DNA of 40,988 nucleotides. Source: Escherichia phage PhiR49_2. Under the pieces are notes generated by a model. The model saw only the letters and a list, made by a program, of their open reading frames with translations, had not been told where the DNA came from and ran no database searches. The DNA is taken from the sequence record PV340570.1; one strand, given 5' to 3'. Below are positions 6,239 to 6,869 of this stretch, one piece after another. Positions within the stretch are counted from its first letter, which is position 1. Each line of letters opens with the position of its first letter. The position numbers and the translations under genes are program-made.

Positions 6239-6787
6239 TCACCATTGGTATTGGTTCTTCCGCAGAAGAGCTTCGCGAGATAAGGGGCAAACTTGTTGAG
6301 ATGCGTCATGGTGTTGCTGCTCCTCACTTTTTGGTTGCTCCGGAGGAGTAACCTCACCAGTTAACAGCCACATCGGATCGCAGCCAAGAATATTTGCCAG
6401 TGGGATAAGCATACTGATAGTTGGTTCATACTCTCCGCTCTCCCACTGGATGATAATTTCTTCATCGAGATCGAGCAGCCTGGCGAGTTCGGCGGTTGTT
6501 AAGCCGCAGGCTTCGCGTTGGGTGCGAAGGTTAACCAGCCAGCTTTCAGGGAAGGATTGTTTTTGTTGCGCAGGAGAAGCAGCAGATAGAGCATATTCAT
6601 GGATAAATTCCATTACCTCAATGCCCAGTTCCTTTGAGCGAGCACAATCCAGAAGATGGAATGTGCGTACAGCACTTAGCAAATTTGCAATATTTAATGC
6701 AAAGGAATCAAGTTCTAAGCCCTTAAGCGTAACACAGCCGCAGTTGATAAAATTAGTTGTTTCTGGAGTTGCTTTTAGTGTCTTCAT
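6239..6787 (-). CDS. XRE-family HTH protein with an unknown N-terminal domain; first gene of the leftward early operon
   Basis: ORF track starts at a TTG (6817); the ATG at 6787 has a GGTGG SD; residues ~95-150 form a Cro/C1-type HTH (…LTTAELARLLDLDEEIIIQWESGEYEPTISMLIPLANILGCDPMWLLTG…). Confidence 0.55.
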   Translation of the reverse strand: MKTLKATPETTNFINCGCVTLKGLELDSFALNIANLLSAVRTFHLLDCARSKELGIEVMEFIHEYALSAASPAQQKQSFPESWLVNLRTQREACGLTTAELARLLDLDEEIIIQWESGEYEPTISMLIPLANILGCDPMWLLTGEVTPPEQPKSEEQQHHDASQQVCPLSREALLRKNQYQW

Positions 6788-6817
6788 ATATCCACCAACA
6801 ATTTTAAATTGAATCAA

Positions 6818-6834
6818 ATCAAGTTATAATTGAT
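6818..6834. promoter_or_regulatory. Candidate operator: 17-bp inverted repeat ATCAAGTTATAATTGAT
   Basis: Outer 5 bp are perfectly palindromic (ATCAA-N7-TTGAT); lies between the -10 element and the start codon of 6239-6787; contains the ACTTGAT motif also present three times in the cI-cro intergenic region. Confidence 0.4.
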
Positions 6835-6840
6835 GGTGCG

Positions 6841-6869
6841 ATATTATGTTTTGGGAAATAGCCTGTCAA
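6841..6869 (-). promoter_or_regulatory. Strong sigma70-like promoter (pL-like) driving the leftward early operon
   Basis: On the minus strand: -35 TTGACA (6869-6864), 17-nt spacer, -10 TAATAT (6846-6841). Confidence 0.55.

Follow-up and report, generated by a model that had tools for sequence, protein, structure and literature searches.

In lambda, as in 434, P22 and 933W, the leftward early promoter pL lies downstream of cI on the same strand and is accompanied by three 17-bp pseudo-palindromic operators (OL), whose consensus is shared with three further sites located between cI and cro (OR). The repressor couples a helix-turn-helix (HTH) domain to a self-cleaving S24 domain, cro is divergent from cI, and the lambda OL sites are spaced 24 and 20 bp centre to centre. 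HK022 is a lambdoid phage devoid of N, with Nun at the first pL position. The present work concerns the early-left region of Escherichia phage PhiR49_2 (sequence record PV340570.1), whose whole stretch of 40,988 nt was analysed and is referred to as the window; all coordinates are those of the window. Judging from sequence comparison, positions 6797-6881 most probably (about 85%) constitute the OL/pL control region of a lambdoid Escherichia coli prophage, and the first gene placed behind it encodes an uncharacterised 182-aa regulator of the XRE family.

The window follows the lambda family in its general arrangement: a predicted leftward early promoter downstream of cI and on the same strand, three 17-bp pseudo-palindromes with a consensus shared with three cI-cro sites, a repressor of the HTH and S24 self-cleaving kind, and a cro gene divergent from cI. 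Every testable feature of the lambda OL/pL family, N and nut excepted, therefore appears to be present. A number of differences from lambda are nevertheless apparent. The operators have a sequence of their own, with A(A/C)TTGAT half-sites, and are spaced 21 bp (OL1-OL3) and 47 bp (OL1-OL2) centre to centre. Only about 0.9 kb separates OL from OR, rexAB is absent between cI and pL, and the first gene codes for an XRE regulator instead of N. The combination of a lambdoid layout with a first pL gene that is not an N-type antiterminator recalls HK022. As in that phage, late control would still be exerted by Q, a Q-family protein being annotated in a 99.5%-identical prophage of an O111:H8 strain. 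The first gene product differs from that of HK022 in being a DNA-binding HTH protein that does not resemble Nun, and a search of the window for put-like or nut-like elements yielded none.

A closer counterpart is the Eru7-type phage Stx2_14040 (LC567818), which shares window positions 6374-7987 at about 79% DNA identity and displays the same gene order (HTH regulator, cI, cro, Rha), a CI of at least 90% protein identity and matching operators; the prophage of the window differs in that its regulator is of the single-HTH form. Fagerlund et al. (2022, PMC8951638) classified the CI clades of these phages and the genes lying to the right of cI; their account covers neither the operators nor the leftward promoter, nor the gene that follows cI. 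Literature searches retrieved no study of the 182-aa gene or of its operators.

Promoter and operators of the early-left region

The predicted elements of the control region and of the adjoining repressor region are as follows; ranks are those of the operator matrix described below.

6841..6869, minus strand, pL-like sigma-70 promoter: -35 TTGACA at 6869-6864, 17 nt, -10 TAATAT at 6846-6841; promoter scan 10/12
6818..6834, operator OL1, ATCAAGTTATAATTGAT, at about +1 to +17; top matrix score (training site)
6865..6881, operator OL2, GTCAAGAAAAAATTGAT, overlapping the -35; rank 2 (training site)
6797..6813, operator OL3, AACAATTTTAAATTGAA, weaker, in the 5' leader at about +22 to +38; rank 5, untrained
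6897..6921, minus strand, intrinsic terminator of the cI transcript: stem-loop at 6921-6905, then a T-run
6933..7622, minus strand, cI-type immunity repressor of 229 aa: N-terminal HTH and C-terminal S24 self-cleaving domain
7652..7668, operator ORa, ATAAATCTTTACTTGAT, overlapping the -10 of the candidate pRM; rank 4, untrained
7667..7694, minus strand, candidate pRM: GTTACA at 7694-7689, 16 nt, TAAAAT at 7672-7667; promoter scan 9/12
7701..7717, operator ORb, GTTAATTTAAACTTGAT; rank 3, untrained
7731..7747, operator ORc, ATAAAGTTAATATTGGT, weaker, just upstream of cro; rank 6, untrained
7756..8046, plus strand, Cro-like gene of 96 aa, divergent from cI, with a YdaS-type HTH (Pfam YdaS_toxin 1.4e-12, P22_Cro 1e-4)

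The promoter lies 64 nt past the stop codon of cI, with the cI terminator on one side and the 182-aa gene on the other, and its transcript is predicted to start near 6834. An earlier, sequence-only reading of this DNA had proposed a near-consensus sigma70 promoter on the minus strand just past the cI terminator, followed by a 17-bp inverted repeat. The promoter coordinates are borne out by the scan and the repeat is indeed present at 6818-6834, where direct reading shows 6 of the 8 arm positions to be complementary; OL2 had been missed. The terminator, 11 nt past the cI stop codon, was scanned as a stem of 7 bp, 5 of them GC, closing a loop of 3, with TTTTTCTG after it. Because cI transcription should stop at its own terminator, the leftward operon would depend on its own promoter. 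On the minus strand from pL to int, scanning yielded weak terminator candidates only, which makes an N-less operon plausible.

A symmetrised matrix was trained on left sites only (OL1 and OL2 of the window and of three relatives) and scanned against 40,972 positions. The six best matches are OL1, OL2, ORb, ORa, OL3 and ORc, after which the score falls from 11.3 to 9.6 and below. All six lie within two spacers representing about 280 bp of 41 kb, three of them in the 133-bp cI-cro spacer. The predicted layout is thus of the 3+3 kind familiar from lambda. The 16-mer TCAAKNNNNAWTTGAT has exact matches in the window only at 6819-6834 (OL1) and 6866-6881 (OL2), and OL3 departs from this pattern by one mismatch.

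The two regions had originally been connected through the heptamer ACTTGAT, said to occur three times between cI and cro. Exact copies in that spacer number two (7662 and 7711) and the third is TCTTGAT (7722-7728); a further near-copy, ACTTGCA, lies at 7693-7699. A check of the heptamer against its background frequency gave a divided answer: the six copies in the window do not exceed background (5.7 expected), but all of them fall within 6707-7717, a clustering whose chance, calculated from the positions, is about 5e-8. Three of the six copies lie in coding sequence near the operators: that at 6707 in the part of the 182-aa gene coding for the N-terminal domain, those at 7269 and 7297 in cI. 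These three are not operator-like by the matrix and were rejected as operators; relatives keep the copy at 7269 in part and do not conserve the other two. A direct-repeat reading of the right-hand region, CTTGAT-N5-CTTGAT (7712-7728), was also discarded, having a poor palindrome score and a matrix rank of 121.

A promoter-like match of 10/12 was also recorded on the plus strand at 6803-6830 (TTTAAA, 16 nt, TATAAT). It lies wholly within OL3 and OL1 and is most likely a by-product of AT-rich palindromes.

Conservation among alleles and covariation with the repressor

Related loci, 89 in number, were gathered from IMG/VR and other collections. For the immunity type of the window, 36 distinct alleles of the left region and 23 of the right region could be compared. 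In the left region, variable columns amount to 1/17 in OL1, 2/17 in OL2, 0/17 in OL3 and 0/6 in the -10 hexamer, as against 8/17 in the promoter spacer and 3/4 in the gap separating OL1 from OL3. Taken together, 3 of the 51 operator columns vary, compared with 23 of 63 in the non-operator segments (Fisher p = 9e-5). OL2 is kept in the relatives L002, L003 and L005. On the right, the outer half-sites of ORa are invariant in the 23 alleles, Stx2 phages and phi467 included, while its central 5 bp vary, and ORb is wholly conserved in the type-A alignment, even in the Stx2 phages and phi467.

The gene order cro, divergent repressor, promoter, HTH gene and small gene recurs in six other immunity types, whose repressors are unrelated or distantly related. 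Each of these types displays its own motif, common to the spacer upstream of the HTH gene and to the repressor-cro spacer, and most of the motifs occur only twice per locus of 7-9 kb:

Type B (phiP27 type), GATACTTTGGnTTC
Type C, ATCG-N6-CGAT
Type D, ATAGMR, with 8 of its 19 matches in the two spacers
Type E, ATCAATTA
Type F, TATAGCGATTGA
Type G, GACTAAACnnA

In all nine representatives of the seven immunity types, scanning placed a promoter scoring 9-10/12 ahead of the HTH gene, at a distance of 25-54 nt. This covariation, together with the conserved promoter, is the strongest argument for a real promoter governed by the immunity repressor. The proposal of the sequence-only reading that one repressor controls both regions, making the promoter pL-like, accordingly gains support from the left-trained matrix, the footprint of conservation among alleles and the heteroimmune covariation.

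The cro-adjacent repressor of type G (L094/L095, 2983-3375) is a protein of 130 aa without an S24 domain and with no Pfam match on record. The type G loci still carry a gene with two HTH domains and a type-specific operator. Atypical 'Clade VIII CI' proteins having two HTH domains and no peptidase have been reported (Fagerlund et al. 2022, PMC8951638).

Proposed control and alternative explanations

The CI protein, named XRE family regulator by the PGAP annotation, matches Peptidase_S24 (4e-17) and HTH_3 (4.9e-8) in Pfam, and its translation contains a putative cleavage site at Cys98-Gly99, Ser143 in GDSM and Lys180 in VKRL. We infer that in a lysogen CI binds the three 17-bp pseudo-palindromes at OL as well as the three related cI-cro sites, both early promoters being kept off in this manner. 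Following DNA damage (SOS induction), CI would cleave itself by means of its S24 domain and the residues listed above, and pL would fire, its transcript running leftward through the N-less operon towards xis and int. The first product would be the early XRE regulator, probably a dimer held by an N-terminal two-helix hairpin. It would act on a target conserved among heteroimmune relatives, and hence not on the immunity operators.

Several points weigh against this interpretation. The right-side sites fit the left consensus only in part (5-6 of 7 positions per half-site), and the AT-rich composition of both the spacers and the matrix inflates the scores somewhat. ORc is more variable among alleles, some of which have ATCAAG as left half. 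The gap of 47 bp between OL1 and OL2 corresponds to 4.5 helical turns, unlike the adjacent pairs of lambda. No confident position was found for pR, the best candidate being TTGCAT at 7695-7700, 18 nt, TACTCT, and the assignment of the OR sites to promoters is therefore tentative. In the Stx2-phage and phi467 relatives the cI terminator, kept in A1-type alleles, is absent, and read-through from pRM could also express the HTH gene there. The Cro-like protein could be the main binder at some of the sites. Finally, literature searches found no binding, footprinting, transcript-start or expression results for this prophage or its relatives.

A substitution was noted within the best pR -10 candidate. 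Among the distinct alleles of the cI-cro spacer, that of the window alone has a C at position 7721, the other 22 having T (or A); the hexamer reads TACTCT here and TATTCT elsewhere. This change may lower promoter activity or be irrelevant.

The palindrome could alternatively be the autoregulatory operator of the 182-aa HTH protein, which would then control its own promoter. An HTH gene situated right after a promoter with a palindrome at +1 is the usual layout of autoregulated XRE genes. The HTH is, however, nearly invariant among the relatives, whereas the upstream palindromes differ completely between immunity types and track the repressor; the palindrome is therefore probably not the operator of the 182-aa protein itself. 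In addition, the same motif recurs in the cI-cro spacer, and autoregulation appears very doubtful on these grounds. The least probable explanation is that promoter and palindromes arose by chance in an AT-rich spacer, expression in the lysogen being due to read-through from the cI promoter, in the manner of rexAB in lambda. A 10/12 promoter match is admittedly not unusual per se, such matches being as common as in shuffled sequence (11 observed against 12.5 expected in 7 kb), the heptamer count is at background as mentioned above, and L002, L003 and L005 have no terminator after cI. Chance would nevertheless have to account for the confinement of the top six matrix matches to two spacers, for the conservation of the operators, the -35 and the -10 while adjacent bases vary, for the presence of a promoter at the same place in seven immunity types, and for the good terminator that separates cI from the promoter in the window.

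The identity of the protein bound at the shared sites is a related matter. In lambda, 434 and P22, CI and Cro use the same operators, and the sequence evidence goes no further than a single immunity-specific binding specificity acting at both regions, so that the binder could be CI or Cro. The main user of the sites might be the Cro-like protein (7756-8046), or CI and Cro might both use them while preferring different sites; either possibility is consistent with both observations, and nothing speaks against binding by Cro in addition to CI. That CI should be irrelevant is unlikely, because a near-consensus promoter must be silenced by a repressor in a stable lysogen. A leading role for Cro is given a very slight probability, and it complements the explanation by CI repression at OL/pL rather than replacing it.

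The 182-aa regulator

The genes placed behind the predicted pL and the domains of their products are located as follows.

6239..6787, minus strand, first early-left gene, 182 aa, XRE family; start codon in agreement with PGAP WP_000854063.1
6365..6529, minus strand, HTH of the 182-aa protein, residues 87-141; Pfam HTH_3 E = 4.7e-11, 43 bits against a cut-off of 23
6578..6718, minus strand, N-terminal helical hairpin of the 182-aa protein, residues 24-70
5745..6110, minus strand, second gene, 121 aa; C-terminal hairpin at residues 69-115 (5766-5906)

The description of the first product as an uncharacterised N-terminal domain fused to an XRE-type HTH is accurate, since no Pfam family matches residues 1-86. 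Structure prediction of the N-terminal domain with AlphaFold2 gave a two-helix hairpin (helices 26-45 and 49-69, pLDDT about 80), followed by the HTH (81-143) and a C-terminal tail predicted to be disordered. The HTH fold matches the P22 C2, 434 and C.AhdI domains with rmsd values of 1.0-1.5 Å. Fold searches with the model and sequence searches of solved structures returned generic HTH matches only. The same result was obtained with a defence-system library, and by this comparison the gene belongs to no known defence system.

It had also been claimed that this gene is not an N-like antiterminator, and the claim holds. Pfam, PHROG and NCBIfam contain no N or CII family match for the first gene, and Pfam and PHROG gave no N family match for any of the early-left open reading frames (ORFs) tested. 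Nowhere in the window does the boxA pattern YGCTCTTWA occur, no relevant Rfam match was obtained, and an XRE-HTH gene occupies the first early-left position in all seven immunity types examined. The protein belongs to PHROG 4836 and 4739, the former of which is labelled 'CII-like regulator'. Identity with lambda CII was considered and rejected: there is no match to Pfam Phage_CII, NCBIfam gives a sub-threshold generic HTH only, and the gene is located on the left arm, not between cro and the replication genes. The label appears to derive from a single deposited annotation, the 'putative CII repressor' of phage ASU11.

Detectable homologues of the 182-aa protein number 159 and are all generically named, as are the 17 records of a phage collection in which the family is found (Stx2 phages, phiP27, phi467, ASU11). 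No relative was present in the species-representative genomes scanned, and the family has so far been found only in E. coli/Shigella-type prophages. Its HTH is near-identical among members (in 43 sequences, 25 columns are invariant and 19 nearly so), and the corresponding DNA is about 94.5% identical to that of phiP27 L10. Most members measure 216-230 aa and possess a second HTH. The tail of the 182-aa protein matches the one found after HTH2 in a 258-aa relative, and the 182-aa form looks like the product of an in-frame loss of the second HTH from the usual tandem form; the window segment compared for this purpose was 6239-6400 (minus strand), against P0045, P0005 and P0081. With its different parental tail, phiP27 L10 (138 aa) looks like an independent single-HTH form.

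The N-terminal 75-90 residues or so are the variable part of the family and fall into at least seven types. Six of these were sampled in the 89 loci and each strictly tracks the repressor type; type F was encountered in two further loci, in both of them with its own repressor and no other. The association could result from physical linkage. Mosaic joints lie inside the HTH gene itself, the Stx2 phages matching 6374-7987 and phiP27 matching 5613-6529.

The second gene and the hairpin family

The hairpin of the 121-aa protein and the N-terminal domain of the 182-aa protein are paralogous (BLASTP, 43% identity over 47 aa, E = 9e-10). The 121-aa protein corresponds to PHROG 5451 and 4587, and AlphaFold2 models its helices at 74-89 and 94-120 with a pLDDT of about 90; a fold search with this model gave nothing significant. 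In the O111:H8 genome, the PGAP call is limited to the final 68 aa of this ORF. Many loci conserve the full 121-aa form, stand-alone 66-aa versions exist as well, and the start codon of the 121-aa gene is therefore uncertain. A 66- or 121-aa homologue comes after the HTH gene in most of the 89 loci, in several of which its start overlaps the stop codon of the HTH gene. The hairpin family is tiny: a set of 1.84 billion proteins contains 17 representatives. When the other N-terminal domain types were compared with the family of the small protein, the hhalign probability was 7%, which is not significant, and homology of all N-terminal domains is therefore not claimed.

A comparable layout is known from Bacillus subtilis, where hairpins of SinR and SinI hook into a four-helix bundle and DNA binding is switched off (Colledge et al. 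2011, PMC3163267). Both systems would associate an XRE HTH with a two-helix hairpin and place an adjacent small gene for a hairpin-only homologue, the hairpins of the window being predicted ones. The hairpin is C-terminal in SinR and N-terminal in the 182-aa protein, for which no sequence similarity to SinR/SinI beyond the generic HTH was found. The SinR/SinI-like layout is consequently regarded as a lead based on analogy. Small antirepressors are also found in the AimC/AimX repressor-antirepressor pairs of arbitrium phages (bioRxiv 10.1101/2025.11.23.689978).

It can be speculated that the 182-aa and 121-aa proteins form a regulator/antagonist pair of the SinR/SinI kind, or that the immunity-linked hairpin contacts the cognate CI. 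In either case the pair would govern when the early-left genes are expressed, or the phage's commitment to lysis, throughout a large N-less family of E. coli prophages to which Eru7-type Stx2 phages belong, in replacement of functions of the lambda N/CIII type. We consider this proposal rather unlikely as it stands. The small protein remains conserved while the N-terminal domain of the regulator changes with the immunity type, and a pairing model therefore fits only the immunity type of the window.

Two observations concern the DNA beyond the 121-aa gene. The non-coding stretch that follows it contains a near-palindrome at 5699-5710, ATCCCCGGCGAT (also given as ATCGCCGGGGAT), which 79 of 95 related loci, belonging to different immunity types, carry once and in the same position. 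A search for the conserved DNA target of the invariant HTH gave this possible site as its only lead, although nothing links site and protein. Between the 121-aa and 62-aa genes, a conserved ORF of 37 aa, VTFIKNMASHKTACLIAQYGENYMHIACLFLRKAYGR, occupies 5553-5666 on the minus strand. It is preceded by an AGGAGG ribosome-binding site and starts with GTG here and with ATG in relatives. PGAP leaves it unannotated in the 99.5%-identical O111:H8 prophage; the gene calls of L093 and L095 include it.

Prophage context and significance

Window positions 5600-8100 display 99.5% identity with prophages of the O111:H8 strain 8E and of O55:H7 RM12579, the former adjoining mlrA. The immunity group is present in 348 of 5,426 complete E. 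coli genomes. On the right arm, Rfam identifies isrK at 8916-8992 (61 bits, plus strand) and a C4 antisense RNA at 9014-9101 (75 bits, plus strand), just upstream of or inside the 5' part of a 282-aa Rha/Ash-type ORF (8859-9707). The whole looks like a second, RNA-controlled module of the antirepressor type. Further to the right, the plus strand carries three tRNA genes (15381-15627) followed by the small RNA STnc100 (15707-15906), the group spanning 15381-15906.

The control region is overall an ordinary lambdoid one, and its less ordinary part is the uncharacterised first gene. The operator and promoter results provide a usable map of six predicted CI sites and pL, whose logic is that of textbook lambda. 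The immunity group to which the map applies is shared with the Eru7-type Stx2 phages, whose switch governs toxin release and for which no description of operators was found. Should the first gene product and its hairpin-only neighbour prove to act in the lysis-lysogeny decision, it would represent a new small-protein layer in the control of enterobacterial prophages.

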